The notes under the pieces are model-generated. The model was not told the origin of the DNA and ran no database searches. It saw nothing but the letters and a program-made list of their open reading frames with translations. From assembly GCA_963780375.1 (NCBI GenBank), contig CAWABV010000008.1, forward strand, positions 1,002,052-1,066,051: a stretch of DNA of 64,000 nucleotides, in the 5' to 3' direction. A program made the position numbers and the translations under genes. Numbering within the stretch: the first letter of the stretch is position 1; each line of letters begins with the position of its first letter. Source of the stretch: an uncultured Chloroflexia bacterium. Lineage in GTDB: Bacteria; Chloroflexota; Limnocylindria; Limnocylindrales; CSP1-4. Shown one piece after another: positions 33,614-49,677 of the stretch.

Positions 33614-34554
33614 CGCGCGCCGGCCGGTCGGACCCGGCCGGGCCGGTCTCGACGTCCGCAGCCGCGGTGTCGACCGCGGCCGACGTCGACGCCGCGATCG
33701 CCTCCCTGGTCGAGTCACCGCCGCCGCTCCTCGTCGTGATCGACTTCGACGGCACGCTGGCCGTCGGCTCACGCGATCCCGCGGTCGCCCGTATCGAGCC
33801 GCTCGCCCAACGCGCCCTGCGACGGCTCGGCGGCATCTCGACGGCCCGCCCGGAGCGTCTCCGGCTCGCGGTCCTGACCGGCCGCATCGTCGCCGACGTC
33901 GCAGCGCGCGTGCGCGTCGGCGGGATCGAGTACCTCGGCGACCATGGGCTGCAACACGGCCTCCTCGCCCGAGGCGCGCGAGCCGGGCGGCTGGCCGTCA
34001 CGACCGATCCGGCATTCGACGTCCATCGTGATCCGGCAGAGACGCTGGCGACGGGCGTCGCCAGCGAACTCGGGTCACCGTCCTGGCTGTTCGTGGAGCG
34101 GAAGGGACCGTCCGTGGCGTTCCACGTGCGCCAGGCCGACGACGTGGCGGCCGCCCGCGCCGCGGTCGTCGAGGCCATCGGGGCCGTGGAGCGCCGGCTC
34201 GGGCTCGTCCACGGGCTGGCTCACTATCGCGGCCGCTCGGTCGTCGATCTCCGTCCTCGCGAGGCCGGCGGCAAGCGCGAGGCGGTCGAACGGCTCATCG
34301 CGCGCCACCGACCGGGTGGTATCGCGGTCCTCGGCGACGAGATGAGCGACATCGACGCGTTCGAGGCGGTGATCGCGGCGCGGAACGGGACCGCCCGGGT
34401 CGGCGTGACGATCGCGGTCCACGGCGTCAGCCGACCGGCACCGCAGGAGCTCCTCGCACTCGCCGATCTGCAGCTCGGCGGAGCGCACCACGTCGGCCGC
34501 TGGCTCGCGGCGCTAGCGCGCCGGCTCGATGACCGGCCCGCGGCCCTCCGCTAG
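33610..34554 (+). CDS. otsB: trehalose-6-phosphate phosphatase-like HAD-IIB hydrolase
   Basis: The HAD motif I reads LLVVIDFDGTLA. The lysine motif reads GGKREAVERL, followed by VLGDEMSDIDAFE. The GTG overlaps the tlpA stop. Confidence 0.65.
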   Translation: MTRAGRSDPAGPVSTSAAAVSTAADVDAAIASLVESPPPLLVVIDFDGTLAVGSRDPAVARIEPLAQRALRRLGGISTARPERLRLAVLTGRIVADVAARVRVGGIEYLGDHGLQHGLLARGARAGRLAVTTDPAFDVHRDPAETLATGVASELGSPSWLFVERKGPSVAFHVRQADDVAAARAAVVEAIGAVERRLGLVHGLAHYRGRSVVDLRPREAGGKREAVERLIARHRPGGIAVLGDEMSDIDAFEAVIAARNGTARVGVTIAVHGVSRPAPQELLALADLQLGGAHHVGRWLAALARRLDDRPAALR

Positions 34555-36047: not shown

Positions 36048-37702
36048 TACGCGCCTCCGCCCTCGACTGCCGCGACGGTGTCCTCCCGCCGGCTGGCAAG
36101 GGCCACCGACACGGTCCGCGCCACGATCAGGAGCACGATGAGCGCGAGGCCGATCAGGACGACCTCGATGCCGATCGGGATAGCCTGCCCGCCGTGGGCC
36201 GACTCGAGCACGTCATCGACCGAACCCTGGACGAGTGTCAGCAACAGCCCCGGCTGGACGCCGAACACGACGATGAGCGTGGCGAGCGGCACGAGCGTCA
36301 GGATCTCGATCGGGCTGATGTCCGTCAGGTGTCCGCCGAGTCTCTCCAGGAAGTCCGAGACCTCCCCGAACACGACGCGCTGGTACATCCACAGCAGGTA
36401 CGCGGCGGCCAGGATCATGGCGAAGGCCGCGACCGCCGCCGCGTACGGGTTCACGACGAACGTCCCGACGAGGCTCAGGAACTCGCCGACGAAGCCCGAC
36501 AGCCCCGGTAACCCGGCCGACGCGAAGACGAAGAAGCCGAAGATCGCCGCCCACACGGGCATACGTGCCGCCAGGCCACCCATCTTGGCGATGGTCCTGT
36601 CGTGGGTCCGTTCGTAGATGACGCCGACGAGCAGGAACAAGCCGCCCGTGATCAGGCCGTGGTTGATCATCTGGAGGATCGCGCCCTGGACGCCCTGTTC
36701 GGTGAAGACGAAGGTGCCCAGCGTGACGAAGCCCATGTGGCTCACCGACGAGTAGGCGACCAGGCGTTTGAGGTCCGGTTGGACGAGGGCGACGATCGCG
36801 CCGTAGATGATCGCGATGAGCGAGAGCACGATGATCGTCGGGGCGAACGTCACGGCCGCGTCGGGGAAGAGCGGCAGGGCGAACCGCAGGAAGCCGTACG
36901 CGCCGAGCTTGAGCAGGATGCCGGCGAGGATCACCGAACCGGCGGTCGGCGCGTCCGTGTGGGCGTCCGGCAGCCAGGTGTGGAAGGGGAACATCGGCAC
37001 CTTGATGGCGAACGCCAGGAAGAACGCCAGGAAGGCACCGACCTGGAGTGCCGGCGCGAAACCGGGGCCGGCCGCGAATTCGCGAAGGGTCACGAAGTCG
37101 AACGCGTTGGTCCAACTGCCGGTTGACGATTGGAACGCGAACGCGGTAGCGAGGATGGCCACCAGCATCAGCAGGGAGCCGACGAGGGTGTACAGGACGA
37201 ATTTGATCGTCGAGTAGATGCGGTTGGCGCCACCCCAGATCCCGATGATCAGGTACATGGGGACAAGGACGATCTCCCAGAAGATGTAGAAGAGGAAGAG
37301 GTCCAGCGCCAGGAACACGCCGATCATCCCGACCTCGAGGACGAGGAACGAGATCATGTATTCCTTGATGCGGGTCTGGATCGGGACCCACGACGCAAGG
37401 ATGCAGATCCACGTTAGGGTCGTGGTCAGGACGACCAACGCCGCCGACAGCCCGTCGACGCCGAGCTTGTACTGGATGCCGAACACCGGGATCCAGTCGT
37501 AGGCCTCGATGAACAGGAACTGGCTCCCCGCGCGGCCAGGCAGGTAGCCGATGAGCATCAGCAGCGAGACCACCCATGTCGCCAGCGCGAAGGCCAGCGC
37601 CACAGGTCTCGTCCAGCCTGTCGGGAGGACGGCCACGACCAGCGCGCCGAGCAGCGGCAGGAAAGTGACGATCGTAAGGATCGGCAGCTCGGTGAGGCTC
37701 AT
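36047..37702 (-). CDS. nuoM: NADH-quinone oxidoreductase subunit M
   Basis: The complement ATG at 37702 (MSLTELPILTIV...) is followed by ...FYIFWEIVLVPMYLIIGIWGG...HTWLPDAHTDAPTAGSVILAGILLKLG. Confidence 0.9.
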   Translation of the reverse strand: MSLTELPILTIVTFLPLLGALVVAVLPTGWTRPVALAFALATWVVSLLMLIGYLPGRAGSQFLFIEAYDWIPVFGIQYKLGVDGLSAALVVLTTTLTWICILASWVPIQTRIKEYMISFLVLEVGMIGVFLALDLFLFYIFWEIVLVPMYLIIGIWGGANRIYSTIKFVLYTLVGSLLMLVAILATAFAFQSSTGSWTNAFDFVTLREFAAGPGFAPALQVGAFLAFFLAFAIKVPMFPFHTWLPDAHTDAPTAGSVILAGILLKLGAYGFLRFALPLFPDAAVTFAPTIIVLSLIAIIYGAIVALVQPDLKRLVAYSSVSHMGFVTLGTFVFTEQGVQGAILQMINHGLITGGLFLLVGVIYERTHDRTIAKMGGLAARMPVWAAIFGFFVFASAGLPGLSGFVGEFLSLVGTFVVNPYAAAVAAFAMILAAAYLLWMYQRVVFGEVSDFLERLGGHLTDISPIEILTLVPLATLIVVFGVQPGLLLTLVQGSVDDVLESAHGGQAIPIGIEVVLIGLALIVLLIVARTVSVALASRREDTVAAVEGGGA

Positions 37703-39687
37703 CCGCGGTTCCCGATCAGCAACAGGTACGACCCCGCCATCACGATCAGCCCGAGCGCGATGCCCAGGGCGTAGTTCTGCACGCGGCCGGTCTGCACGCG
37801 GCGGATGCCCCGCCCGGCGCTCACCGTGGAGCTGCCGATGCCGTTGACCGTGCCGTCGACGACTTCCCGATCGAACCACCAGATCGCGTCGGCGATCCGC
37901 CCGCCGATGACGATGAACAGAAGGTGGTTGAGGTCGTCGAACCACCACTTGTTGAGCGATGCCCGGTACAGGAAGGTGAGGCCCGGTCGGGCGCTGATCT
38001 CGCGCACGGCCTCCGGCCGGGACGGCAGGTGGATGCTGCCGATGTCGGCCCCGAACAGTCGCCACGCGAGCGCGACGCCGATCGCCGCGACCGCCACGCT
38101 GGCACCGATGAGCGCCCCGTCGATGCCGAACAGCTGGTACTCGGCCTCGGCGTGGTGGAGCAGCTCGACCGACTCGGCGAAGACCGGCTCGAGCCAGCCG
38201 TGGATGACGCTGGCGCCGAACGGGAGTCCGAGCGCAAGCCCGAGGAGCGTCGATGGGATCGCGAGCAGGATGAGCGGGACGGTCATGACCGCCGGCGACT
38301 CGTGGATGCGGTCCCAGACCTCCTTCGGGCCCCGGAAGTCGCCCCAGAACGTGAGGCCCATCAGCCGGAACATGTAGAAGGCGGTCAACAGCGCCACGAA
38401 CAGCCCGATCGCCCAGATCCACGGGAACCCGAGCTTGAACGCCTCGCCCAGGATCTCGTCCTTCGAGAAGAAGCCGGCCAGTGGCGGGATGCCGGCGATC
38501 GCGAACGAGCCGACGAGCATCGTCACGTAGGTGATGGCGATCTTCTTCGACAGGCCACCCATCCGCCGCATGTCCTGCTCTTCGTGGACCGCGTGGATGA
38601 CCGAGCCCGACCCGAGGAACAGGAGACCCTTGAAGAAGCCGTGGGTCATCAGGTGGAAGATCGCCGCCGTGAAGGCACCGACGCCGAGCGCGGCGAACAT
38701 GTAGCCGAGCTGCGACAGGGTCGAGTAGGCGAGCACCCGCTTGATGTCGGTCTGGGTCATGGCGATCGACGCGGCCAGGATCGCCGTGAAGATGCCGATC
38801 GACGCGACGACCACCATCGCCGACGGGGCCGCTGCGAACAGCGGGTTCGCCCGAGCCACGAGGTACACGCCGGCATTGACCATCGTCGCAGCGTGGATGA
38901 GGGCGGAGACCGGGGTCGGGCCCTCCATCGCGTCGGGCAGCCAGACGTGGAGCGGGAACTGCGCGCTCTTGCCCATGGCACCGGCGAACACGAGCAGAGC
39001 CACGACCGGCACCGGGACCGGGAAGGCCGCCAGGGTCGGCGAAAGCATGATCTCGAGCGAGTGGCGGACGTCCAGGGTTCCGGTGTTCAGGAAGATGGCC
39101 ATGATCCCGAGCGCGAACCCGACATCGCCGACCCGGTTGACGATGAACGCTTTCTTCGCGGCCAGGGCCGCCGAGCGCTTGCGATACCAGAACCCGATCA
39201 GCAGATAGCTCGACAGGCCGACCAGCTCCCACGCCACGAAGACGACCAACCAGGAGTCGGCCAGGACCAGCAGCAGCATCGAGAACATGAAGAGGTTGAG
39301 GTAGGCGAAGAACCGCCAGTACCCGGGGTCGTGGCCCATGTAGCCCACCGAGTAGATGTGGACCAGCAGGCCGATCGTCGTGACCACGATCAGCAGGCAG
39401 GCCGTCAGCTCGTCGACGTACAGGCCGAGGTCGACGTGGAAGGCGCCGGCCGGGATCCACGTCCACGGCCCGACGATATAGCCGTGGCTCTCGGTGCCCT
39501 CGATCGGCGGGGCCGAGCCGGTCAGCACGCTGACGACCGCGACCATGGCGATCAGCCAGGCGATGAAGATGACGCCGACGGCGACCCAGTGCGCCTGGAA
39601 CCCCAGACGGCGCCCGACGAGCGCGGTGAACAGGAAGCCCCCCATCGGCAGGACGAGGAGCAGCGGCAGGAGGCCCTCGACCGTCAC
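37699..39687 (-). CDS. nuoL: NADH-quinone oxidoreductase subunit L
   Basis: GTG at 39687. The protein reads MTVEGLLPLLLVLPMGG...FVAWELVGLSSYLLIGFWYRK...HVWLPDAMEGPTPVSALIHAATMV, with the long C-terminal amphipathic helix region. Confidence 0.9.
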   Translation of the reverse strand: MTVEGLLPLLLVLPMGGFLFTALVGRRLGFQAHWVAVGVIFIAWLIAMVAVVSVLTGSAPPIEGTESHGYIVGPWTWIPAGAFHVDLGLYVDELTACLLIVVTTIGLLVHIYSVGYMGHDPGYWRFFAYLNLFMFSMLLLVLADSWLVVFVAWELVGLSSYLLIGFWYRKRSAALAAKKAFIVNRVGDVGFALGIMAIFLNTGTLDVRHSLEIMLSPTLAAFPVPVPVVALLVFAGAMGKSAQFPLHVWLPDAMEGPTPVSALIHAATMVNAGVYLVARANPLFAAAPSAMVVVASIGIFTAILAASIAMTQTDIKRVLAYSTLSQLGYMFAALGVGAFTAAIFHLMTHGFFKGLLFLGSGSVIHAVHEEQDMRRMGGLSKKIAITYVTMLVGSFAIAGIPPLAGFFSKDEILGEAFKLGFPWIWAIGLFVALLTAFYMFRLMGLTFWGDFRGPKEVWDRIHESPAVMTVPLILLAIPSTLLGLALGLPFGASVIHGWLEPVFAESVELLHHAEAEYQLFGIDGALIGASVAVAAIGVALAWRLFGADIGSIHLPSRPEAVREISARPGLTFLYRASLNKWWFDDLNHLLFIVIGGRIADAIWWFDREVVDGTVNGIGSSTVSAGRGIRRVQTGRVQNYALGIALGLIVMAGSYLLLIGNRG

Positions 39688-39715
39688 TGGGAACTACCTT
39701 GCGGCACGCCGCTGT

Positions 39716-40033
39716 TCATTGCCTCATGGCGTCGTACTCGTCGACCAGAGGCGTCTTCTTGTTGCGGTAGATCGCGATGACGATGGACAGCCCGACTGTG
39801 GCTTCGGCCGCGGCGACGGCCATGACCATCAGCGCGAACACCGCACCCTGTGCGGTCGCGTCGGCGCGCGGGCCGAACAGCCCGAAGGCGACGATCGACA
39901 GGTTGACCGCGTTGAGCATCAGCTCGATCGACATGAGCATGCTGATCGCGTGGCGGCGCGCCAGGAAGCCGAACGAGCCGATGGCGAAGAGGATCCCGGA
40001 CAGGATGAGGTAGGTGTCGAGGCTGTCGCTCAC
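39716..40033 (-). CDS. nuoK: NADH-quinone oxidoreductase subunit K
   Basis: The GTG at 40033 overlaps the nuoJ stop. The product is ~105 aa with 3 TM helices: ...[43 protein letters not shown].... Confidence 0.85.
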
Positions 40034-40623
40034 GACGGTCCGCCCGGTTCGCGCTTGGCCAGGAAGACGCCACCGATCACCGCCGCGAGCAGCAGGACGC
40101 TGACCACCTCGAACGGGAACACGAACTGCTGGAACAGGATCCGCGACATGAGCGTCGTGCTGAGCCGGGCGCCGCGCGCGACCTCTCCCCAGTTCGTGGC
40201 CGTCACGGCCAACGCGATGACGATGGCGACGACCACCGCGGCGATCGACGCCGGACCGGCCTGCGTCTGGAACACCAGCCGTGTCGGGGCGTCCTTGGTC
40301 TGGGTGAGCATGATCGCGAACAGGATCAGGACGCTGATCGCGCCGATGTAGACGATGACCTGCGCCGCCCCGAGCAGCGGCACGCCCATCAGGACGTAGA
40401 TCCCGGCGAGCGCCATGAAGCAGACGATCATCGCGAGGCCGCACCGGATGATGTCGCGCATCGTCACGACGAGCAGGCCGCTACCGATCATCAGCGCCCC
40501 GAGGATCCACAGCAGCACGTCGTCCCAGTCCTGGTGGAGCACGACCAGCATCAGGGCCGCGATCCCGAGCACCGCGCCCATGACCAGGAACGCGAAGATG
40601 ATCTGAGGGAGCTTGGCGAGCAC
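40030..40623 (-). CDS. nuoJ: NADH-quinone oxidoreductase subunit J
   Basis: The GTG at 40623 lies 3 nt after the NuoG-like stop. ...[61 protein letters not shown]... is an ND6-like sequence. Confidence 0.8.
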
Positions 40624-40625
40624 GG

Positions 40626-43274
40626 CTACTCGTGCTGGCCGGGACCGAGCGCGGCGACCGCGCCGTGTCCGTCGTGGCCGTGTCCGTCGTGCCCGTTGCC
40701 GTTGCCGCGGGCACCCGGCGCGATACCCGTCAGCGTCGGCGGGAGCACCGGGAGCAGCCGGGCCGGGTCGTAGACGCGCCCCTCGGCGCGCGCTCGCTCC
40801 ACCCAATCGCGCTCGCGCCGGATGTACGTGACCTCGGTCTCCCTGTCGATCGCGGCGAGCGCGATGAGGTCGATCGCCGGGTCGGTCCGGCCGGTGTGCG
40901 AGAGTTCGAAGTCGGCACCGTCGCGCAGGGCGTCATACGGGCACGCGTCGACGCAGATGCCGCACAGGATGCAGCGGCTCTCGTCGACCTCGTACTTCTC
41001 GAGGACCCGTGGCTTGGGCATCAGGGCGCCGGTCGGACAGGTCTCGGCGCACCGACCGCACGAAACGCACGGTGTGTCGTTCAGGCTCATGTCCAGCGGC
41101 GTCGTGACGAGCGTATCGAAGCCGATGCGCATGAAGTCGTAGCACGCGGCGCCGACGACCTCGGCGCAGACGTTGGCGCATCGGCCGCAGTCGATGCAGC
41201 GCGACGGCTCGCGAAGGATGAACGAGTGCGAGTCATCGCGGATGTAGTCGTGGTTGATGCCGGTGAAGCGGTTCTCGGTGATCGATCGGTAGCCTGCGCC
41301 CTGGTGGTTGTTCGGCTCGAGCGTGGCGAGCGTGGTGCCGTACTCGATGCCGAGCCGCCGGAGGTCGCAGAACCCGATCGCCTCGCACGTGCACTGCAGG
41401 CAGCGGGTCAATTCCGCCATCGCGTCTTCGCGCGAGTAGGGCAGCTCGTACTCGATGTAGCTGCGGTTGCGCTCCTCCGCAGATAACGGCTTGAGCCGGT
41501 AGCGCGGCTCCTTCACCTCACCGGTGAACGGCACGATCGACAGGAACTCGGGCTGTGGCTCCGCCAGGGTCTGTCGCGTCCGGATCGCGTCGAGGTCCAT
41601 GCCCTTGAGGTAGGCGTCCACCGCATAGGCCGCTCGCCGGCCCTCGGCGACGGCCTCGACCACGGTCGCCGCGCCGATGCGCACGTCACCCGTGCCGAAC
41701 ACGCCGGGTCGGCCGGTCGAGAAGGTGACCGCGTCGGCCTTGAGCCGACGGTTCTTGGTCGCCTCGACGCCCTCGTTGCCCGGCGCGCCTGCCCAGTCGA
41801 GCTCAGGGCCCTGGCCGATGGCCAGCAGGACCCGATCGCACGGGATCGTGAACTCGGTGCCGGGCGCCGGCTCGGGCCGGCGCCGCCCGGACGCATCCGC
41901 CTCGCCGAGCTGCATCCGGATGAACTCGACGCCGGTCACCTTGCCCTTAGCGTCGGTCATGATCTTCGTCGGGCCGGCCTGGAAGATGGCGGTCACGCCC
42001 TCCTCGATCGCCTCATGGACCTCATCCGCCGCCGGCATGTCCTTCATGTCGCGGCGGTAGACGAGCGTCACCTCGCTGGCGCCCTGGCGGATCGACGTGC
42101 GCGAGCAGTCCATCGAGGTGAACCCGCCGCCGATGACGACGACGCGCTTGCCCTCGTGGCCCGGATACGGCAGACCGAGCGTGGCCGTGCGCAGGTACTC
42201 GAGGCCGTCGATGACACCATCGGCGTCCTCGTTCGGGATGCCGAGCTTGTTGGTGTCGTAACAGCCGATCGCGACCACGACCGAGTCGAAGCCCTGGTTC
42301 GTCAGGTCGTCGAGTGAGAAGTCGCGCCCGAGCCCGGCGTTGGTGACCATCCGCGCGCCGAGCCGCATGACCGACTCGTATTCGGCCTCCAGGACCTCGA
42401 TCTTCGGCAGCCGGTACTGCGGGATCCCGTAGCGGAGCATCCCGCCCGGCGCCGGGTCGCGCTCGAAGACGGTGACGTCGTGGCCAGCGATCAGCAGGTA
42501 GTAGGCGGCGGCCATGCCGGCCGGGCCGGAACCGATGACCGCGGCGCGTCGACCCGAGGTCGCCTGCGGCTCGAAGGGGACGGGCGGATCCACGCCGTCG
42601 TCGAGCATCGACTTGAGGACCTGGTCGCCGGCGTACCGATGCGAGTCGCGGATGGCGATCGCCTCGTCGACCTCGTCGCGCCGGCAGTGCTCCTCGCACG
42701 GAGCGGGGCAGACGCGGCCGAGCACGGACGGGAACGGGATCGTGCGCTTGAAGATCCGCGTGCTCTCGCGCCAGTTCGCCTCGGCATTGGCCTTGAGGAA
42801 CCCCGGGATGTCGATGTGGCTCGGGCACTTGTTCTGGCAGGGCGGCAGGCAATACGCGTTGTGGTCCGAGAAGATCAGCTCGAGGTTGGTCCGCCGCAGC
42901 CGGCGCACCTCCTCGGTCTGCGTCTGGACCTTCATCCCGTCCTCGCACGAACGCGAGCACGAGATCGGCGGATGCTCCTCGCCCTCGACCTCGACGACGC
43001 ACATCCGGCAGGCGCCGAAGCCCGGCAGCTTCGGTTCGTAGCAGAGCGTCGGGATCTCGATCCCGTTGTCGCGGCAGACCTCGAGGATCGTTTGGCCCTC
43101 GAAGCCCTCGACGACGCGACCATCGACCTCGATGCGGATGCGCGGCGTCGACTGCGGTCGCTGCGGCGCCTGTGTCTCGAGGAGGCGCTCCGCGAGGGAG
43201 GCGCGCGTCCCGGCCGGCGCCGATGCTTCGACGTCGGCGGCGCGGCGGTCCGGGCGGGCGAGCGTGTCGGTCAT
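40626..43274 (-). CDS. chimeric NuoG-position iron-sulfur flavoprotein: NuoG-type 2Fe-2S domain + GltD/NfnB-like NAD(P)H:FAD oxidoreductase module + NuoG/HydA-type N5/N4 Fe-S region + extra 4Fe-4S ferredoxin motif; no molybdopterin-like domain
   Basis: N-terminus: IRIEVDGRVVEGFEGQTILEVCRDNGIEIPTLCYEPKLPGFGACRMCVVEV, a 2Fe-2S domain. GltD N-terminal cluster region: HNAYCLPPCQNKCPSHIDIPGF...GRVCPAPCEEHC. Dinucleotide folds: AVIGSGPAGMAAAYYL and KRVVVIGGGFTSMDCSRTS. Then RCIDCGRCANVCAEV...CVSCGRCAETCPTGAL and CILCGICVDACPYDAL. It is translationally overlapped with nuoF upstream and lies 3 nt from nuoJ downstream. Confidence 0.75.
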   Translation of the reverse strand: MTDTLARPDRRAADVEASAPAGTRASLAERLLETQAPQRPQSTPRIRIEVDGRVVEGFEGQTILEVCRDNGIEIPTLCYEPKLPGFGACRMCVVEVEGEEHPPISCSRSCEDGMKVQTQTEEVRRLRRTNLELIFSDHNAYCLPPCQNKCPSHIDIPGFLKANAEANWRESTRIFKRTIPFPSVLGRVCPAPCEEHCRRDEVDEAIAIRDSHRYAGDQVLKSMLDDGVDPPVPFEPQATSGRRAAVIGSGPAGMAAAYYLLIAGHDVTVFERDPAPGGMLRYGIPQYRLPKIEVLEAEYESVMRLGARMVTNAGLGRDFSLDDLTNQGFDSVVVAIGCYDTNKLGIPNEDADGVIDGLEYLRTATLGLPYPGHEGKRVVVIGGGFTSMDCSRTSIRQGASEVTLVYRRDMKDMPAADEVHEAIEEGVTAIFQAGPTKIMTDAKGKVTGVEFIRMQLGEADASGRRRPEPAPGTEFTIPCDRVLLAIGQGPELDWAGAPGNEGVEATKNRRLKADAVTFSTGRPGVFGTGDVRIGAATVVEAVAEGRRAAYAVDAYLKGMDLDAIRTRQTLAEPQPEFLSIVPFTGEVKEPRYRLKPLSAEERNRSYIEYELPYSREDAMAELTRCLQCTCEAIGFCDLRRLGIEYGTTLATLEPNNHQGAGYRSITENRFTGINHDYIRDDSHSFILREPSRCIDCGRCANVCAEVVGAACYDFMRIGFDTLVTTPLDMSLNDTPCVSCGRCAETCPTGALMPKPRVLEKYEVDESRCILCGICVDACPYDALRDGADFELSHTGRTDPAIDLIALAAIDRETEVTYIRRERDWVERARAEGRVYDPARLLPVLPPTLTGIAPGARGNGNGHDGHGHDGHGAVAALGPGQHE

Positions 43275-44563
43275 CGGGCCTCACTCGCGACCGGCGTGGG
43301 CCGGCGATCGGGGTCGAAGGCGGACCCGAAGTATCGCATCCCGCTGGTGAGCGGGAGGGTCGCGAGACGCTCGTGGTCGCACAGCGCGGACTCGACGATG
43401 TCGTGCGCGAGATCGGCCGCCAGCTGCCCATCGACCGGCCGGAGCAGACCCCCCTCGCGCCGGCCGACGAGCTCGGCCAGCCGTTTCGTCCCGATCCGGC
43501 ACGGGATCGATTTGCCGCACGCCTCGTTCGAGCAGAAGCGCGTCAGGACCCCGATGAGCTCGAGAAGGTCGGTCCGGTCGTCGACCAGCACCAGAGAGCC
43601 GGATCCCAAGTGGGCGCCGGCCTCGCGCAGGCCCTCGAAGTCGTACGGCGTGTCAAGGGCATCCGGCGGCAGCAGGCCACCCGACGGTCCCCCGATGAGC
43701 AGTGCCTGCAGCGTGCGGCCCTGGGGCAGCTTCCCGCCCAGCTTGACGACGTCGCGCAGGGGCGTGCCGAGCGGGACTTCTGCGACGCCGTCCTTCCCCG
43801 GCGTGCGGACCTGGACGAGGACCGTTCCGGGCGCACGGGTCGAGCCGATGGACCGGAACGCCTCTGGGCCCTCGCGCAGGATCCACGGGACGGCAGCGAG
43901 GGTCTGCACGTTGTTGACGACGGTCGGCTGGTCGTGGAGGCCCGTGACCGCGGGATGCGGCGGCCGCTGCTCGGGCTGGCCGCGCTTGCCCTCGAGGGCC
44001 TTGATGAGGACCGTCTCCTCGCCGAGCATGTAGGCGCCCTGGACCGGCCGGACCGTCAGCCACAGCTCGCGGCCGGAGCCGAGGACGTCGTCGCCGAGGA
44101 AGCCCGCATCGGTCGCATAGCCGATGGCCGTGGACAGTGCGGCGATGACCTCCGTGTCCTCGCCCCGGACGGCGATGAAGGCCTCGTGCGCACCGATGGC
44201 GCTCGCGGCGATGGCAGTCCCCTCGATGACCGCGAACGGATCGCGCAGCATCAGCGTGCGATCGGTATGCGACGCCGGGTCGGCGCCGTAGCCGTTGGCG
44301 ATGACGTATCGCTTGGTCGCGTCGGTCGTGGCGGCGGTCCGCCACTTGTCGCCGGTCGGGTAGCCGGCGCCGCCTCGCCCACGCAGTCCCGATGCCGTCA
44401 CGGCGGCGATCGTGCCGGCGCCGCCGAGGTCACGGAAGGCGCGTTGCAGCGCGTCGAAGCCGCCGGCGGCGACGGCCGCGTCGAGGTCGGTCGGATCCTT
44501 CGCATCGGCCCGTGCCAGGAGGATGCGCGGCCACGAGGCTGGCGTGCGCAGGATGGTCACCAC
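43271..44563 (-). CDS. nuoF: NADH-quinone oxidoreductase subunit F (51-kDa FMN/NADH subunit); N3 cluster motif spacing deviates from the usual CxxCxxC
   Basis: The GTG at 44563 overlaps the upstream stop. The FMN site reads GLRGRGGAGYPTGDKW, followed by the SLBB region. The cluster motif is FCSNEACGKSIPCRIG ... LCDH, against the canonical ESCGxCTPCREG ... C. Confidence 0.85.
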   Translation of the reverse strand: MVTILRTPASWPRILLARADAKDPTDLDAAVAAGGFDALQRAFRDLGGAGTIAAVTASGLRGRGGAGYPTGDKWRTAATTDATKRYVIANGYGADPASHTDRTLMLRDPFAVIEGTAIAASAIGAHEAFIAVRGEDTEVIAALSTAIGYATDAGFLGDDVLGSGRELWLTVRPVQGAYMLGEETVLIKALEGKRGQPEQRPPHPAVTGLHDQPTVVNNVQTLAAVPWILREGPEAFRSIGSTRAPGTVLVQVRTPGKDGVAEVPLGTPLRDVVKLGGKLPQGRTLQALLIGGPSGGLLPPDALDTPYDFEGLREAGAHLGSGSLVLVDDRTDLLELIGVLTRFCSNEACGKSIPCRIGTKRLAELVGRREGGLLRPVDGQLAADLAHDIVESALCDHERLATLPLTSGMRYFGSAFDPDRRPTPVASEAR

Positions 44564-44564
44564 C

Positions 44565-45242
44565 TCAGTTCGGGGCGGACGCGCCGGGGCGACCGCCTCC
44601 CTCGAGCGCGGCGCGGAGTGCCGCCACGTAGCTGGATTCGGCCGGGCGGTGGCGCTCGACGGCCGCGACCTGGTCGGTCGCCGTCGGCGGCTCGAAGCGC
44701 AGGTGCGCGTAGTAGCTCGCCGTCCCATAGATCATCGCGTACCAGGTGCCGGTCTTGTGGCTGATGCGCTTCAGGGCGGCGACGGGCAGGTAGCCGTACG
44801 CCTCCTGCGTCGCCTCGAGGATCGGCAGCAGCTGCGCGGGATCCATGTCGTAGTCGTCGAGGATGCGGTCGACCTCAGCCATGTCGAGCGGCTCGTATGG
44901 ACGGAACGCGGGATCCGGCACGGGTCGGCCGGACCGGCGCAGTGCCGATTCCTCACGCCGCTCGCCGTACGTCTCGGGTGCTCCCCAGTGGACGTGGTAG
45001 CGCCCGCGGGTGTCGATGCCGCCCATGTCGATGCACTCGATCGGGCAGGCCTGCGCGCACTGGAAGCACGTCTCGCACTTGAGCGTGCCCCACTCGTCGT
45101 AGAGCAGCTGGAGGCGGCCCCGGAACTTGTGCGGAACGTCCAGCCGCACCTCCGGGTACATGATCGTGGCCTTCGGCTCGAAGAAGCGCCGCAGGGTCAG
45201 CGCCATGCCCTTGGCGATGCCGAGACCGGGGACGAAGCTCAT
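44565..45242 (-). CDS. fusion of a truncated NuoI (single Cx2Cx2Cx3CP motif) with the N-terminal helical domain of NuoE; no NuoE 2Fe-2S thioredoxin-like domain
   Basis: N-terminal half: MSFVPGLGIAKGMALTLRRFFEPKATIMYPEVRLDVPHKFRGRLQL...KCETCFQCAQACPIECIDM, matching NuoI up to its first motif. C-terminal half: ILDDYDMDPAQLLPILEATQEAYGYLPVAALKRISHKTGTWYAMIYGTASYYAHLRF, matching the NuoE N-domain (compare T. thermophilus Nqo2 ...LLRRVQQEEGWI...GVASFYSYYQF). Neither the second CxxCxxCxxxCP nor the 4-Cys N1a motif appears in any of the three minus-strand frames. Confidence 0.7.
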   Translation of the reverse strand: MSFVPGLGIAKGMALTLRRFFEPKATIMYPEVRLDVPHKFRGRLQLLYDEWGTLKCETCFQCAQACPIECIDMGGIDTRGRYHVHWGAPETYGERREESALRRSGRPVPDPAFRPYEPLDMAEVDRILDDYDMDPAQLLPILEATQEAYGYLPVAALKRISHKTGTWYAMIYGTASYYAHLRFEPPTATDQVAAVERHRPAESSYVAALRAALEGGGRPGASAPN

Positions 45243-45245
45243 CGC

Positions 45246-46592
45246 CTAGCGACCCAGGACCACGATCGCGCCTGCCGTGACGAACAGGTTGAGCAGCGAT
45301 GCCGGGAGCAGCCACTTCCACGCGAAACCCATCAGCTGATCGACGCGCACCCTCGGCAGGGTGCCCCGCATCCAGACGAACGTGAACACGAGCGCGTACG
45401 TCTTGAGCATGAACCAGAGGATACCGGCCACCCACTCGAGCCCGATGTACGCCCACGCCACGCCGAGCGTGACGATGAACACGTTGGCGAGCACGAACCC
45501 GATGAGCAGCGCCTGCCACCACTTGATGCGGGAGCTCAGCAGCCAGAACGGCGCGGCGAACAGGAGCGTCAGTACGACCGGCGCGAGCGACAGGATGAAG
45601 AGGAGGCCGACGTTGAACGACGCCGGATCGAGGCTCAGCTGGACGTGCCACGCGTCGGGGATCGCGAACGGCGCGTTCCATCCGCCCAGGAACAGCGTCA
45701 CGAACAAGGCCGAGATGATGAACACGTTGACGTACTCGGCGAAGAAGAAGAACCCGAACCGCATGCCGGAGTACTCCGTCGCGAACCCCGCGACGATCTC
45801 GGAGTCGGCCTCGGTCAGGTCGAACGGCGTGCGATTGGCCTCTGCCGTCGCGGCGATGAAGAAGATCAGTGCACCGAGTGGCTGCTGGAAGATGTACCAG
45901 TCGGTGAACCAGCCCTGCTGGTTCTCGACGAGTGTGTTGAGGCTCATCGTGCCGGCCAGCAGCAACAGCCCGACGACCGACAGCGTCAGCGGGATCTCGT
46001 AGCTGACCACCTGCGCGGCGGCGCGCAGCCCGCCGAGCAGCGAGTACTTGTTGTAGCTCGACCAGCCGGCCATCAGCAGGCCCACGACTGATAGGCCGCC
46101 GACGGCGAAGAAGTACAGCAACGCAAGGTTGATGTCGACCCCGAACAACCCCGGCGCGAACGGGATCACGAGCAACGACATGACGCTCGCGAGGTAGACG
46201 ACCACCGGCGCCCACGTGAAGACCACGGAGTCGGCGCCGGTCGGGGTGAAGTCCTCCTTCATGAGGACCTTGAGCCCGTGGACCACGGAGAGCAGCGACC
46301 CGAACGGCCCGACCCGGTCCGGTCCGATCCGAAGATTCATCAGGGCGATGATCTTCATCTCCATGTAGATGATCAGGAACGCGGTCGGGATCGTCATCAC
46401 CAGGATCACCGTCGCGGCGACCACGAATCGGACGATCGGCAGGTTCGCCGCCAGCGTGTCGACTGCCAGCTGCCCGAACGACGTGATCAGGATGATGAGC
46501 GCCGCCGTCGCGACGACGAGCAACGGGACGACGATGAACAGGAATTTCCCGGGCAGGGTCAGCCGGTCCCAACCCCGCGAGATGACGGTCAC
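45246..46592 (-). CDS. nuoH: NADH-quinone oxidoreductase subunit H
   Basis: GTG at 46592. ...IIALMNLRIGPDRVGPFGSLLSVVHGLKVLMKEDF...AEYSGMRFGFFFFAEYVNVFIISALF... is an ND1-like sequence. Confidence 0.9.
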   Translation of the reverse strand: MTVISRGWDRLTLPGKFLFIVVPLLVVATAALIILITSFGQLAVDTLAANLPIVRFVVAATVILVMTIPTAFLIIYMEMKIIALMNLRIGPDRVGPFGSLLSVVHGLKVLMKEDFTPTGADSVVFTWAPVVVYLASVMSLLVIPFAPGLFGVDINLALLYFFAVGGLSVVGLLMAGWSSYNKYSLLGGLRAAAQVVSYEIPLTLSVVGLLLLAGTMSLNTLVENQQGWFTDWYIFQQPLGALIFFIAATAEANRTPFDLTEADSEIVAGFATEYSGMRFGFFFFAEYVNVFIISALFVTLFLGGWNAPFAIPDAWHVQLSLDPASFNVGLLFILSLAPVVLTLLFAAPFWLLSSRIKWWQALLIGFVLANVFIVTLGVAWAYIGLEWVAGILWFMLKTYALVFTFVWMRGTLPRVRVDQLMGFAWKWLLPASLLNLFVTAGAIVVLGR

Positions 46593-46725
46593 TTCGAACT
46601 ACCTTGCGTGGAGTCCGGCGAGCCGAGGCCAAGGCGACCGCGAGCACCCAAGCGAGCGTAGCTTGAGCTACGTGAGCGCCGGGGCGCAGCGGTCAACGCA
46701 GGGATCGGCCGTCGGGCGACACGCC

Positions 46726-47994
46726 TCACTTATCGACGCCGCCCATGATCGGGTCGAGTGACGCCATGATCGCCATCGTGTCTGCTACGAGGTGGCCCGG
46801 CATCATCAGTCCGACCGACTGGAGATGCAGGAACGACGGGTCGTGGATCCGCATCCGGAACGGCTGGTCCGTCCCGTCGCTGATGGCATACACGCCGTAT
46901 TGCCCGCGGGGGCCCTCGATGCCCGCGTAGGCCCGCCCGGGCCGCGGCCGAAGCAGCCGCGGCAGCTTGGCCATGACGGGACCGTCGGGCATCTGGTGGA
47001 GGCACTGGTCGATGATCCGCAGGCTCTGCTTGATCTCGTCCATCCGGAGCAGGTAGCGGGCGAGGCAGTCGCCCTCCTGGCGGGTCGGGATGTCGAAGTC
47101 GAGCTCGGGATAGATGCTGTAGGGGTGCGCCCGGCGCATGTCGAACGGCACGCCGGTCGCCCGCAGGTTCGGGCCGCTCATCGTCATCCGCAGCGCGGTC
47201 TTCGAATCGATCTTGCCGAGGCCGCGCATCCGGCGCACGAAGATCTCGTTCTCATTGAGCAGCGTGTTGCCGGCTTCGATCTGCTCGGTCGCGTGGCTCA
47301 TCCACGTGCCGAGTCGGCTCATGAACTCGTGGTTGAGGTCGCCGTTGACTCCGCCGATGCGGAAGTAGTTGAACAGCATCCGCTGGCCCGTCAGCGATGC
47401 GAGCATATCGACGATCTCGTCGCGTTCGATGAACGACCACAGGATCGGCGTCAGGCCCCCGAGATCGAGCGCCATCCAGCCGAGGAACAACGCATGGCTG
47501 GCGACCCGGTTGAGCTCCGCTGACAGCACGCGGATGTATTCCGCGCGCCTGGGCACTTCCACGTCGAGCAGCTTCTCGAAGGCCATCACGCCCGGCCATT
47601 CGCAGAACAGCGAGCTCACGTACTCGAGCGGGTCGAGGTAGCAGATCGCCTGGTGGTAGTCGGCGTTCTCGCACAGCTTCTCGACACCTCGATGGAGGTA
47701 GCCGAGCACCGGGTCGAGGTCGACGACCTTCTCGCCGTCGAGCTTGAGGACGACCCGGAGCACGCCGTGGGTCGACGGGTGCTGCGGGCCCATGTTCAGG
47801 AACATCTCGCCGTCCCGCAGCGTGTAGAACTCGGCCTCGCGCTCCGTCCGCGGCGGGTAGGGCGGGACCGGCTCGAAGACGCCGAGGTCACGGTCGAGCT
47901 TGATGCGCGGATCGTCGGGCTCGCCCGCGAAGGCATCGTCGCCGAGATTGGTCGTATGGGTCCAGGCGTCCGATCGGGGGGTCGTGGCGGTCAT
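46726..47994 (-). CDS. nuoD: NADH-quinone oxidoreductase subunit D (49-kDa)
   Basis: ...NMGPQHPSTHGVLRVVLKLDGEKVVDLDPVLGYLHRGVEKLCE...RIHDPSFLHLQSVGLMMPGHLVADTMAIMASLDPIMGGVDK. Confidence 0.9.
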   Translation of the reverse strand: MTATTPRSDAWTHTTNLGDDAFAGEPDDPRIKLDRDLGVFEPVPPYPPRTEREAEFYTLRDGEMFLNMGPQHPSTHGVLRVVLKLDGEKVVDLDPVLGYLHRGVEKLCENADYHQAICYLDPLEYVSSLFCEWPGVMAFEKLLDVEVPRRAEYIRVLSAELNRVASHALFLGWMALDLGGLTPILWSFIERDEIVDMLASLTGQRMLFNYFRIGGVNGDLNHEFMSRLGTWMSHATEQIEAGNTLLNENEIFVRRMRGLGKIDSKTALRMTMSGPNLRATGVPFDMRRAHPYSIYPELDFDIPTRQEGDCLARYLLRMDEIKQSLRIIDQCLHQMPDGPVMAKLPRLLRPRPGRAYAGIEGPRGQYGVYAISDGTDQPFRMRIHDPSFLHLQSVGLMMPGHLVADTMAIMASLDPIMGGVDK

Positions 47995-48003
47995 CGCGGA
48001 TCC

Positions 48004-48558
48004 TCAGGTGCCGGCGGTGATCCGGCGTGGCGAGCTCGTCTGCGGGAGCTCGCTCGGCACGTGCGTCCGCTCCATCGGTCGGACGCCGGCGCCGGGTGAC
48101 CGGGCGGCGTCGTCGGCGAGATAGAAATCCTTCCGGAGCGGAAAGCTCTGGTAATCGGGGGGCATGTAGATGCGCCGCAGGTCGCGGTTGCCCTCGAACG
48201 TGATCCCGAACATGTCGTAAGCCTCGCGTTCCATCCACTCGGCGCCCTTCCACATGAAGGTGACCGAAGGAACGCGTGGGTCGTCGCGCGACAACCCGTC
48301 GGCGATGATCCGCAGCCAGTCGGTGGTGGTGGGACTCCACAGGTGGTAGACGACCTGCATCACTTCGCCCGTGTCGACGCCGCACAGGTCGGCGAGGAAC
48401 TCGAACGCGAATCCCGGTTCGTCGTGGAGCGCGGTGATCACCGGCACCACGTCGCCCGCGGCGATGCGGATCTCGGTCTCGTCGTGGCGCTGACGGATCG
48501 GCCCGGTCAGCTGCTCCTCGAAGCGCCGCTCGAGGCGAGCCTTGAATGCACGGTCCAT
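48004..48558 (-). CDS. nuoC: NADH-quinone oxidoreductase subunit C (30-kDa), not fused to D
   Basis: ...[38 protein letters not shown]...[25 protein letters not shown]. Confidence 0.85.
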
Positions 48559-48559
48559 G

Positions 48560-49342
48560 TCAGACCTGTGCGGGGACGGTCGGCCCGATCGCCCGCTCCG
48601 GCCAGTGGCCGCGACGATCCTTGACGAGCTGTTGGAGCTTCATCATCCCGAAGATGAGCCCTTCGGGCCGCGGCGGGCAGCCAGGCACGTAGACGTCGAC
48701 TGGCATGACCCGGTCGATCCCCTCCACCGTCGAGTAGCTCCGCTTATACCGGCCACCGGAACAGGTGCAATCGCCCATCGCGACGCACCACTTCGGTTCA
48801 GGCATCTGCTCCCAGAGGCGGACGAGTGGTCCCGCCATCTTCGTCGTCAGCGTGCCGGCGACGATCAGCACGTCCGCCTGGCGCGGGCTGGCCCGGAACG
48901 GGAACATCCCCCAGCGATCCATGTCGTTCTTCGATGTCGCCGCCGACATCATCTCGATGGCGCAGCAGGCGAGGCCCGACAGGAGCGGCCATAAGCTGTT
49001 CATCCGGATGAGGTCCAGGACGTAGTCGGCCTTCGTCGGGATGACCTCAAGGGGACCGCTCCACCGCGCGTCGTCACGGCGGCCCGCCCCGCTCGCCTCG
49101 ATGTCGGCGAGGTGGGTGATGGTGGTCGGCTGGTCGCCGTCGTACGCTGCCGGGTCGATCGATCGCCAGAGCGTGTTGGGCACGACGATCGGCGACATCA
49201 CCTCGTCGCTCGGTCGCGTGGCAGGCAGCCCGGGCTGGGCCGGAACATCCGATGAGATCTGGGTCGCGTCCGACGATCCACCAAGGCCGTCGGGATCGAC
49301 GCGGTGATCGTTCACCGCCATGTGAGAGCTCCCTTCCGCCAC
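48560..49342 (-). CDS. nuoB: NADH-quinone oxidoreductase subunit B (PSST, N2 cluster) with an ~80-aa N-terminal extension
   Basis: [10 protein letters not shown]...[44 protein letters not shown]...[13 protein letters not shown] carries the canonical N2 ligands. Confidence 0.9.
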
Positions 49343-49677
49343 GCGTACGCGAGGCCGAGCAACAGGATCAGAACGAACAAGACCATGCTGATGAACAGCC
49401 CGGCCGGGTTCAGGGTGGGGTCCTTGAAGACGATCGCCCAGAGGTAGATGAAGATCACCTCGATGTCGAACGCCACGAACAGCAGCGCGTAGATGTAGAA
49501 GGACAGCCCGAAGCGGCCGTGGGTGTCGCCGTATGTGTCGATGCCTGACTCGTAGGGAAGGCCCTTGTGCACGTCACCCTTGTTGCGATGGGAGACGAGC
49601 CACGCCGCGGCGATCGTCAGGAACACGAACGAGACGCCGGCGAAGGCGAAGCCCACGACGTACCAGAGCTGTTCCAA
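49312..49677 (-). CDS. nuoA: NADH-quinone oxidoreductase subunit A
   Basis: Three TM helices: ...YESGIDTYGDTHGRFGLSFYIYALLFVAFDIEVIFIYLWAIVF... It is the first gene of the operon. Confidence 0.85.
   Translation of the reverse strand: MEQLWYVVGFAFAGVSFVFLTIAAAWLVSHRNKGDVHKGLPYESGIDTYGDTHGRFGLSFYIYALLFVAFDIEVIFIYLWAIVFKDPTLNPAGLFISMVLFVLILLLGLAYAWRKGALTWR

Follow-up and report, generated by a model that had tools for sequence, protein, structure and literature searches.

A nuo operon of Limnocylindria with a predicted two-piece NuoI enclosing an nfnCBA-like cassette

The 225-aa ORF between nuoH and the nuoF-like gene

The 64-kilobase (kb) stretch of contig CAWABV010000008.1 analyzed here (below, the window, in whose numbering all positions are given) originates from an uncultured Chloroflexia bacterium of the Limnocylindria lineage and carries on its minus strand an operon for respiratory complex I, in which an open reading frame (ORF) of 225 amino acids (aa) lies between nuoH and a nuoF-like gene. 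The Q- and P-module subunits A, B, C, D, H, J, K, L, M, and N are all encoded in this single operon, as judged from ORF calls, Pfam matches, and synteny. The N-module is not canonical: its NuoE-type part (E') is fused to a NuoI-type part (I') in the 225-aa ORF and has no cluster domain, the second N3 cysteine of the NuoF-like protein is replaced by Ser or Thr, and the place of NuoG is taken by an 882-aa GltD chimera devoid of the large NuoG C-terminal domain. The I'::E' ORF starts 3 nucleotides (nt) past the nuoH stop codon, the GTG start of the nuoF-like gene follows 1 nt past the stop codon of the ORF, and the stop codon of the nuoF-like gene overlaps the ATG of the chimera. Such abutting or overlapping of neighboring genes is consistent with co-translation. 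Programmed read-through of the ORF into nuoF was considered and rejected, since nuoF is in another frame and has its own GTG, and the same arrangement is found in the relatives.

Residues 9-82 of the ORF match only the first half of the NuoI models (positions 1-63 of 121 in TIGR01971, E=4.5e-13; positions 13-87 of 180 in NF004536, E=3.9e-14), and residues 125-186 match positions 2-63 of 145 in PF01257 (NuoE, 2Fe-2S_thioredx; E=1.9e-9) with a score of 38 bits vs. a gathering score of 24.8, which identifies the four-helix N-terminal domain of NuoE. Both the NuoI and the NuoE profile matches are far beyond chance. Taken alone, the ORF scores below the curated cut-offs of the full-length families, namely 48.8 vs. 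113.05 bits (TIGR01971) and 52.4 vs. 212 bits (NF004536) for NuoI, and 19.6 vs. 142.4 for the NuoE model TIGR01958. The single CxxCxxCxxxCP motif of the ORF, CETCFQCAQACP, is formed by C56, C59, C62, and C66, and the only additional cysteine is C70. Residues 71-225 contain no cysteine, so that the CxxxxC...CxxxC site of the NuoE thioredoxin-like domain, which holds the [2Fe-2S] cluster N1a (C1), is absent. A six-frame regular-expression scan of positions 44400-45400 yielded no second CxxCxxCxxxC motif, and the sole CxxxxC...CxxxC match in these six frames lies in a non-coding frame and crosses two stop codons. No other nuoE, nuoI, nuoF, or nuoG was found in the 64-kb window by tblastn with full-length NuoE-type and NuoI queries. 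An earlier sequence-only reading of the window had described the ORF as the N-terminal half of NuoI with one ferredoxin motif, a Cys-free connector in place of the second motif, and the helical domain of NuoE without the N1a-carrying part, and had noted the lack of a standalone nuoE; the profile matches, the motif scan, and the tblastn search agree with it on each of these points.

The ORF is divided into four segments (Table 1). The Cys-free connector (HWGAPETYGERREESALRRSGRPVPD...) has a mean column conservation of 0.95 at residues 81-100 and 0.85 at residues 101-120, which suggests a packed element more than a floppy linker. The poorly conserved tail, VAAVER...YVAALRAALEGG, lines up in alignment A2 with the segment VCHGTAC...ITEALEEELG of those relatives that have a full NuoE, and is therefore probably a vestige of the first beta-alpha unit of a lost thioredoxin-like [2Fe-2S] domain, its cysteines gone. 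An AlphaFold2 model of the ORF, built with 48 homologs, contains a confident four-helix unit at residues 121-178, with predicted local distance difference test (pLDDT) values of 77-94. The top Foldseek match of this unit is the N-terminal domain of NfnC (9bov_C; root-mean-square deviation 1.2 A, TM score 0.91 normalized to the target, 44% identity), followed by a second NfnC (9n5u_C) and then by StnA (8oh5_A). The helical domain is 41-44% identical to the NfnC N-terminal domains vs. 18-25% to the NuoE chains of complex I, which also score lower.

The second half of NuoI and the Nfn-type cassette

Three CxxCxxCxxxCP motifs are present in the whole window, one in the ORF and two in the C-terminal part of the 882-aa chimera. 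Near the chimera C-terminus, a segment with the last of these motifs (CILCGICVDACP, then DALRDGADFELSH) matches the part of TIGR01971 that is missing from the ORF (positions 71-115 of 121). When this fragment is searched in isolation, eight of its top nine family matches are NuoI/NdhI models, all of them ahead of generic ferredoxins, and the match runs past the motif into the NuoI-typical D-A-x(4-5)-F-E-L segment (DALRDGADFEL here, conserved). Residues 1-84 of the ORF re-joined with residues 753-835 of the chimera give one uninterrupted TIGR01971 match over positions 1-115 with 99.3 bits, as compared with 48.8 bits for the N-terminal half (positions 1-63) and 43.7-48.1 bits for the C-terminal half (positions 71-115) when scored separately. 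The re-joined sequence also forms single alignments to the mitochondrial NDUFS8/TYKY (9f5x_G, residues 85-206) and to bacterial NuoI chains. Because the halves are complementary and colinear on the NuoI model, the window is read as encoding a complete NuoI in two pieces. As is usual for this gene, both pieces are flanked by nuoH and nuoJ, and the window has no further NuoI-like sequence. Two motifs in one polypeptide, as in NuoI, are not found in the ORF; the second motif is on the chimera, and eight of eight cysteines are present in trans. In ferredoxins with two [4Fe-4S] clusters, each cluster is held by three cysteines of one motif and the fourth cysteine of the other, so that the ORF and the chimera would be stapled together by both clusters. 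The statement of the sequence-only reading that the protein cannot bind the usual cluster pair thus holds for the isolated polypeptide and fails for the two halves taken together, with their eight invariant cysteines. Its suggestion that the missing ferredoxin capacity resides at the C-terminus of the NuoG-like chimera gains a more specific form here, as what is found there is the colinear second half of NuoI itself.

The chimera consists of a NuoG/NfnA-type [2Fe-2S] N-terminal domain, a GltD/NfnL-like domain with two [4Fe-4S] clusters, flavin adenine dinucleotide (FAD), and an NADPH site, a NuoG-like iron-sulfur (Fe-S) region, the NuoI C-terminal half, and a variable tail. Its closest solved relative is NfnA 9bov_A (E=1.1e-163 over residues 46-778), followed by NfnA 9n5u_A (3.3e-143) and StnC 8oh5_C; the first two belong to the NfnABC complexes of C. 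saccharolyticus and T. sibiricus, and StnC is the large subunit of Sporomusa StnABC. The chimera has the domains typical of NfnA, i.e., the [2Fe-2S] N-terminal domain, the NfnL/GltD-like FAD/NADPH domain, and the NuoG/Fdh-like Fe-S region, and lacks the Fdh-like pterin-fold domain at the C-terminus, being 882 aa long vs. 1178 aa for NfnA and ending in the NuoI half and a short tail. The sequences GSGPAG...FER, GGGFTSMD, and LVYRRDMKDMPA are invariant and align to the NADPH-oxidizing NfnA, the NADPH-type motif LVYRR being invariant; judged by the conservation of these motifs (LVYRR..., GSGPAG), the chimera may oxidize NADPH or reduce NADP+. The 2x[4Fe-4S] ferredoxin-like domain (CIDCGRCANVC ... 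CVSCGRCAETCP) is the most constrained segment measured (Table 1), and its last cysteine, C746, is 22 residues ahead of C768, the first cysteine of the NuoI C-half motif. In every locus that covers the respective position, 30 of the 32 chimera cysteines are invariant, including all of those in the [2Fe-2S], GltD-type, and NuoG-type cluster motifs, the two variable ones being C110 (Ala in three loci) and C479 (Ala in one locus). In NfnA of C. saccharolyticus, Lys170 is an unusual fourth ligand of cluster A7, which lies beside the FAD (PMC11829005); the chimera has an invariant His212 at this position, and the related loci L082, L085, and L087 described below have His there as well. The tail of the chimera (residues 836-882) is poorly conserved and contains a Gly/His/Asp-rich run (GNGNGHDGHGHDGHG), for which metal binding is a guess.

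The NuoF-like protein (430 aa) consists of the PF01512 and PF10589 domains only, without the additional domains of the Bfu family. Its nearest solved relatives are NfnB 9bov_B (6.8e-90), NfnB 9n5u_B, and HydB, all ahead of NuoF from complex I. The loop NADEGDPG(A/T)F for flavin mononucleotide (FMN) and NADH is changed to NGYGADPASH (residues 90-99), its core NGYGADPA being invariant across Limnocylindria, and FCSNEACGK[S/T]IPC (residues 344-355) stands in place of the N3/B1 motif SCGKCxPC, with Ser or Thr for the second canonical cysteine in all relatives. The invariant cysteines of this protein are C344, C349, C355, and C395, of which C344, five residues upstream, suggests a relocated N3 ligand. 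The motifs RGRGGAG, GEET, and NNVQT are retained. That these derived residues do not vary either speaks for a function retained at least in part.

By sequence comparison, E', the NuoF-like protein, and the chimera are thus homologs of NfnC, NfnB, and NfnA, the subunits of the Bfu-type NADPH transhydrogenase NfnABC/Stn, a relationship of the three genes as one cassette within nuoI that is absent from the sequence-only reading. Since all three genes between the halves have this affinity, nuoI appears to be interrupted by an nfnCBA-like cassette inserted in frame, with the N-terminal half of NuoI fused to the C-type subunit and its C-terminal half replacing the pterin domain of the A-type subunit. 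The gene order E'-F-chimera (NuoE-like, NuoF-like, large subunit) is what we take to be the C-B-A order of Bfu operons such as hydCBA. In the solved NfnABC, the trimer is anchored by the N-terminal domain of NfnC, which sits as a wedge between the Rossmann fold of NfnB and NfnA (PMC11829005), a role that would explain why this domain alone was retained in the ORF.

Table 1. Positions of the operon genes, protein segments, and other features in the window, with dN/dS values where estimated.
Feature	Position	Strand	Basis	dN/dS
PF02636 protein, 397 aa	50100-51293	-	PF02636 match	
Upstream block nuoA, B, C, D, H	45246-49677	-		
nuoA	49312-49677	-	ORF call; synteny	
nuoB	48560-49342	-	ORF call; synteny	
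nuoC	48004-48558	-	ORF call; synteny	
nuoD	46726-47994	-	ORF call; synteny	0.13
nuoH	45246-46592	-	ORF call, Pfam match	0.23
I'::E' ORF, 225 aa	44565-45242	-	ORF call, domain matches	
ORF residues 1-85: NuoI N-terminal helix, first CxxCxxCxxxCP, next beta-hairpin	44988-45242	-	TIGR01971/NF004536	0.14
First CxxCxxCxxxCP motif	45042-45077	-	motif scan	
ORF residues 86-119: Cys-free connector	44886-44987	-	conservation	0.09
ORF residues 120-190: four-helix N-terminal domain, NuoE/NfnC (BfuC) type	44673-44885	-	PF01257, AlphaFold2, Foldseek	0.28
ORF residues 191-225: poorly conserved tail	44568-44672	-	alignment A2	0.33
nuoF-like gene, 430 aa	43271-44563	-	PF01512 + PF10589	0.30
FMN/NADH loop of NuoF-like protein	44267-44296	-		
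N3/B1 motif of NuoF-like protein	43499-43534	-		
GltD chimera, 882 aa	40626-43274	-	Pfam + NCBIfam matches	
Chimera residues 136-560: GltD/NfnL-like, two [4Fe-4S], FAD, NADPH site	41595-42869	-	PF14691 + PF07992	
Chimera His212	42639-42641	-		
Chimera residues 686-752: 2x[4Fe-4S] ferredoxin-like	41019-41219	-	PF22117 Fer4_Nqo3, Fer4_7	0.03
Chimera residues 753-835: NuoI C-half	40770-41018	-	TIGR01971	
Second NuoI CxxCxxCxxxCP motif	40938-40973	-	motif scan	
Chimera residues 836-882: tail	40629-40769	-		
nuoJ, nuoK, nuoL, nuoM, nuoN	34551-40620	-	ORFs; Pfam for NuoJ, NuoN; nuoL-like paralog matches; synteny	
ORF with protein O-mannosyltransferase domains, 1797 aa	17651-23044	+	PMT, PMT_4TMC	

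Conservation of the split and related loci

A genome search in a one-genome-per-species collection yielded at least 487 matches to the ORF, and 80 of these loci were examined; in a protein database, 2947 relatives were found at E <= 0.001. Among the 80 matches listed, nearly all are labelled Chloroflexota, Chloroflexia, Limnocylindria, or Limnocylindrales, and the Limnocylindria matches come from numerous metagenome assemblies of soil and freshwater. All 80 loci have the gene order A-B-C-D-H-ORF-F-chimera-J-K-L as far as the contig reaches, and in each of them the ORF is full-length, in the same frame, and has its cysteines at the same places. The motif region EWGTLKCETCFQCAQACPIECIDMGG hardly varies, all five ORF cysteines are present in 80/80 loci, and C768, C771, C774, and C778 of the chimera are invariant in 63/63 loci, so that all eight cysteines of the two NuoI halves are invariant across species. 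The same ORF is carried by independent assemblies, including long-read single-contig metagenome-assembled genomes of 2-2.9 Mb. Hundreds of soil Chloroflexota species share the split-NuoI design. The ratio of nonsynonymous to synonymous substitution rates (dN/dS), estimated by the Nei-Gojobori method for the window vs. ten loci, ranges from 0.03 to 0.33 over the measured segments, the connector of the ORF having one of the lowest values (Table 1, with nuoD and nuoH for comparison).

Distant full-length relatives of the ORF (31-46% identity) are all located directly after nuoH and ahead of a NuoF-like gene. The most complete version of the cassette was observed in locus L087 (GCA_040769125.1, JAXGLO010000001.1, 663802-684563; GC content 0.67), where a full nuoA-N operon includes an I'::E protein of 253 aa with all four cluster cysteines in its NuoE part, a 636-aa NuoF of the complete BfuB type (thioredoxin-like N-terminal domain, NGDEGDPGAF, GAGAFVCGEET, ESCGKCVPC, and C-terminal 2x[4Fe-4S]), and an 824-aa GltD chimera ending RCIFCGDCVEACPYDAL, followed by nuoJKLMN. 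Locus L084 (Logan SRR22388304, 1321-6023) is wired differently, since its GltD part is attached to F and not inserted in the G-like subunit: I' fused to a full NuoE is followed by a 1048-aa NuoF::GltD fusion, a 265-aa HoxU/NuoG-like protein ending CIYCGLCVESCPHDAL (the NuoI C-half), and nuoJKLMN. Locus L085 retains the NuoE cysteines and has a short F with the derived loop NAYGADP and with Gly for the third cysteine of the N3 motif, as well as a GltD chimera with the NuoI C-half at the contig end. In L082, the NuoE cluster domain is lost, F is short and has the derived loop, and a 793-aa GltD chimera carries the NuoI C-half, nuoJ-N being not adjacent and other genes standing next to it. The window has likewise lost the NuoE cluster domain and has a short F with the derived loop, with nuoJKLMN directly after its 882-aa chimera with the NuoI C-half. 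The NuoE [2Fe-2S] domain is present in the proteins P0233, P0246, and P0256 and in L087. The Tyr-Gly change of the loop is common to the window, L082, and L085, whereas L081, L084, and L087, which have the full Bfu B subunit, keep the canonical loop. For one protein 69% identical to P0233, a member of the L087-type family, the 90%-identity cluster also holds a Thermoleophilia-labelled sequence.

Both NuoI halves are thus found on the first and the last cassette proteins in four architecturally different relatives (L082, L084, L085, and L087). Given the split in these distant relatives and the alignment of the ORF tail to the lost domain, the split is judged from the sequences to be older and wider than Limnocylindria, the window being the most reduced form among the loci compared. 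In a library clustered at 50% identity, frameshifted representatives with high GC content (P0153, P0154, P0161, P0197, P0136, and P0244) were discarded; the apparent I'E'-F fusions in this library are artifacts of frameshifted translations.

Several further observations concern the operon and its surroundings. NuoH is long (448 aa), its Pfam match extending over residues 61-440 for a profile of 298 positions, which implies insertions, and NuoB (260 aa) appears, on visual inspection of the translation, to be extended at its N-terminus by about 90 residues ahead of the conserved core; either feature could be an adaptation to an altered peripheral arm. Directly upstream of nuoA and on the same strand, the window encodes a 397-aa protein of the PF02636 family (Methyltransf_28, E=3.7e-47), a homolog of which occupies the matching position and strand in 61 related loci. 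PF02636 corresponds to the MidA/NDUFAF7 family, the mitochondrial member of which is an arginine methyltransferase for the assembly of complex I, with NDUFS2 (NuoD) as its substrate. One locus, L014 (DATNFQ010000083.1), and the protein P0029 are labelled "Patescibacteria group bacterium" and have an operon with about 88% protein identity to that of the window; this contig is probably mis-binned or mislabelled Limnocylindria. Elsewhere in the window, a 1797-aa ORF has its protein O-mannosyltransferase domains confined to the C-terminal third.

Alternative explanations, proposed mechanism, and implications

In our interpretation, the 225-aa ORF encodes a working part of a respiratory complex I of non-canonical build, the NuoI core subunit of which is made from two polypeptides with an nfnCBA-type cassette between them; we estimate the probability of this interpretation at roughly three in four. 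The halves of NuoI would reassemble and cross-ligate the usual N6a/N6b pair of [4Fe-4S] clusters, and this reassembly would also link the Q-module covalently to the electron-input module, the large NuoG C-terminal domain being absent. The helical domain of E' would serve as a structural wedge only, between the F and A subunits. The main electron entry is predicted to be NADPH at the GltD-like FAD, from which electrons would pass through the [4Fe-4S] clusters of the A chain to N6a/N6b of the reassembled NuoI, then to N2 and menaquinone, with the unchanged membrane arm pumping protons; this path is proposed on the strength of the conserved clusters, the FAD and NADPH motifs, the closeness of C746 to C768, and the dN/dS of 0.03 in the 2x[4Fe-4S] ferredoxin-like domain. 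In NfnABC, electrons of NADPH are described as passing from FAD through A7, A6, A3, A2, and A1 to B1-FMN-C1, the branch A2-A4-A5 being called a dead end (PMC11829005). As for the FMN site of the NuoF-like protein, it may serve NADH as a second point of entry or exit, or it may be a remnant that has partly degenerated. The likely function, as far as homology and motifs indicate, is that of a proton-pumping NAD(P)H:quinone oxidoreductase that receives NADPH at its GltD-like FAD. The enzyme of the window would be non-bifurcating. According to Schut et al. (2022), BfuB proteins with the B2-B5 cluster/Zn domains separate bifurcating enzymes from non-bifurcating homologs (PMC9304861), and C1 is the [2Fe-2S] cluster of BfuC, a part of the B1-FMN-C1 flavobicluster (PMC11829005). 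In the window, both the B2-B5 domains and the C1/N1a cluster are absent, and no bifurcation is expected for this reason. The 636-aa subunit of L087 has the B2-B5 domains by domain content; L087 is therefore a candidate quinone-linked bifurcating or confurcating complex, and relatives of this type might bifurcate electrons.

The sequence-only reading had offered, as one possibility, a deletion or degenerate locus; on this view, the second NuoI motif and most of nuoE would have been lost and a non-functional fusion left. Half of NuoI and the NuoE [2Fe-2S] domain are indeed missing from the ORF, its tail resembles a decayed remnant, and constraint within the operon is weakest on NuoF and on the part derived from NuoE (dN/dS 0.28-0.33). 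Nonetheless, we consider a pseudogene very improbable, given that the ORF keeps its length and frame, with fixed gene order and invariant cysteines, in 80/80 loci examined among the at least 487 matches, these loci belonging to different species, that dN/dS is well under 1 in every segment of the ORF (0.09-0.33, the lowest value in the connector), and that the complementary half of NuoI is conserved within the same operon. The other possibility raised there, a frameshift that hides separate normal nuoI and nuoE genes and would be a sequencing or assembly artifact, is plausible in general, frameshifted gene calls being common in high-GC assemblies (e.g., P0153, P0154, and P0161); for this locus it is close to negligible, as none of the frames of 44400-45400 contains a second motif or NuoE cysteines in a usable arrangement, the stretch from the motif to the helical domain shows protein-level conservation in the frame of the ORF, and the independent assemblies agree, those from long reads included.

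A split NuoI would be illusory if the ORF formed a homodimeric 2x[4Fe-4S] unit, or bound a single cluster with the help of C70, and if the last motif of the chimera were a further poly-ferredoxin repeat. Half-ferredoxins can in principle homodimerize, C70 is invariant within Limnocylindria, other ferredoxin motifs stand directly upstream in the chimera, and polyferredoxins such as FwdF equal the NuoI score against the re-joined sequence in a PDB search. The high FwdF score results from repeated matches, C70 is not conserved in distant relatives, and the last module of the chimera, including the segment after the motif, fits NuoI-specific models better than generic ferredoxins. Furthermore, the halves are exactly complementary (positions 1-63 and 71-115) with additive scores as one stretch, and both are retained on the first and last cassette proteins of the four architecturally different relatives, which makes this explanation improbable. 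A rather more serious competitor, though still an unlikely one, accepts the same architecture with another physiology: NADH at the FMN of NuoF would be the main donor, and the GltD-like site would be either an outlet to NADPH, fed by reverse flow driven by the proton-motive force or by NADH-to-NADP+ transhydrogenation via the shared Fe-S chain, or regulatory. The motifs RGRGGAG, GEET, and NNVQT with four invariant cysteines in NuoF, the canonical NADH-site motifs in the less reduced relatives, and the linking of NADPH, NAD, and ferredoxin through the same chain in the parent NfnABC are in its favor, whereas the FMN/NADH loop is altered at normally conserved positions (NADEGDPG to NGYGADPA), NuoF and E' are less constrained than the GltD and Fe-S parts, and the enzyme no longer has the N1a/C1 cluster or the B2-B5 domains of Bfu.

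Several points weigh against the interpretation of the ORF as part of a two-piece NuoI in an NADPH-fed complex. At its 99.3 bits, the re-joined NuoI is below the TIGR01971 cut-off of 113 bits, and AlphaFold2 run on this single sequence gave a pLDDT of 32, which is not usable as a model. The half-ferredoxin part of the ORF model also has low confidence (pLDDT 31-45), a result that fits the need for a partner without proving one. Assembly of the halves is predicted from sequence colinearity and co-conservation, and the donor specificity from homology. The NuoF site is ambiguous, as with its derived loop and non-canonical N3 motif the binding of FMN or NADH may be altered or lost. Finally, the search for second copies covered the 64-kb window, and a canonical complex I may be located elsewhere in these genomes.

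Compared with canonical NuoI (Nqo9, NDUFS8/TYKY), the version in the window has the same N-terminal region, the two CxxCxxCxxxCP motifs, the post-motif segment, and the operon position between nuoH and nuoJ, and differs in being divided into two polypeptides, the coding regions of which are separated by about 4 kb. Each polypeptide is joined to one of the subunits of the electron-input module, and neither half alone attains the family cut-off (48.8 and 43.7 bits vs. 113), whereas all solved complex I structures matched by the re-joined halves have NuoI as one chain. The best solved relatives of all three cassette proteins are NfnABC and StnABC (PDB 9bov, 9n5u, and 8oh5; PMC11829005, PMC12018979). 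These share with the window the A subunit with the [2Fe-2S] N-terminal domain, the NfnL/GltD insertion, and the NADPH motifs, as well as the N-terminal domain of NfnC; in the window, A has the NuoI C-half at its end, no Fdh-like pterin domain, and His for Lys at A7, B lacks the thioredoxin-like N-terminal domain and the C-terminal cluster/Zn domain, and C lacks the [2Fe-2S] domain. Being encoded inside a nuo operon, the module is presumably membrane-bound and quinone-linked, unlike the soluble Nfn. Schut et al. (2022) predicted "Nuo-Bfu" complexes of 14 subunits (A-N) in Deferribacteres, Proteobacteria, Planctomycetes, and Nitrospirae (PMC9304861), which resemble the present system as complex I-like proton-pumping quinone reductases with Bfu-type NuoEFG encoded in the middle of a nuo cluster. 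The terms "NuoI", "split", and "GltD" do not occur in the text of that paper, so that neither a split NuoI nor, for Nuo clusters, an A subunit of the NADPH/GltD type is mentioned there. In the mbx-like operons described by Degli Esposti (2015), a gltD-like flavoprotein substitutes for NuoI (PMC4758237), so that a GltD-type NAD(P)H flavoprotein likewise adjoins the NuoI position; in contrast, the window retains NuoI, in divided form, and its module adds NuoF- and NuoE-type parts. No description of a NuoI divided between two fusion proteins, of a NuoI-NuoE fusion, or of an Nfn/GltD-type A subunit inside a nuo operon was found, for any lineage, in the searchable literature (subscription-only papers being outside its scope). 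Exchange of modules on the conserved Q/P-module of complex I is exemplified by Fpo with FpoF and by cyanobacterial NDH-1 with ferredoxin.

A widely conserved natural cut of NuoI between its cluster motifs, with each half placed on the electron-input module, is informative for the assembly of this core subunit. If the halves reassemble, the N6a/N6b ferredoxin unit can form in trans, and the input module would be docked in a new way, without the large NuoG C-terminal domain. The related loci form a series from a full Bfu module through one without B2-B5 to one that also lacks the NuoE cluster domain, which offers a natural route linking the soluble bifurcating enzymes with respiratory complex I. 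Present pipelines label the ORF "ferredoxin", "hypothetical protein", or "subunit E", and genomes with this operon would therefore be scored as lacking nuoI, nuoE, and nuoG.

The inserted module, predicted to oxidize NADPH, suggests a respiratory complex I fed by NADPH. A broader scenario, which we hold tentatively and with clearly less confidence than the two-piece NuoI itself, is that Limnocylindria respire with a proton-pumping complex I that has a two-polypeptide form of the universal core subunit NuoI and accepts NADPH via a GltD/NfnL-type FAD instead of, or besides, NADH, and that the L087-type complexes would carry a full Bfu module on the same split NuoI, membrane-bound and quinone-linked, and would couple the proton-motive force to NADPH, NADH, and ferredoxin. 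If the assignment of NADPH is true, these uncultured bacteria would have an NADPH-driven or NADPH-producing proton-pumping complex I, which would change the models of their redox balance.

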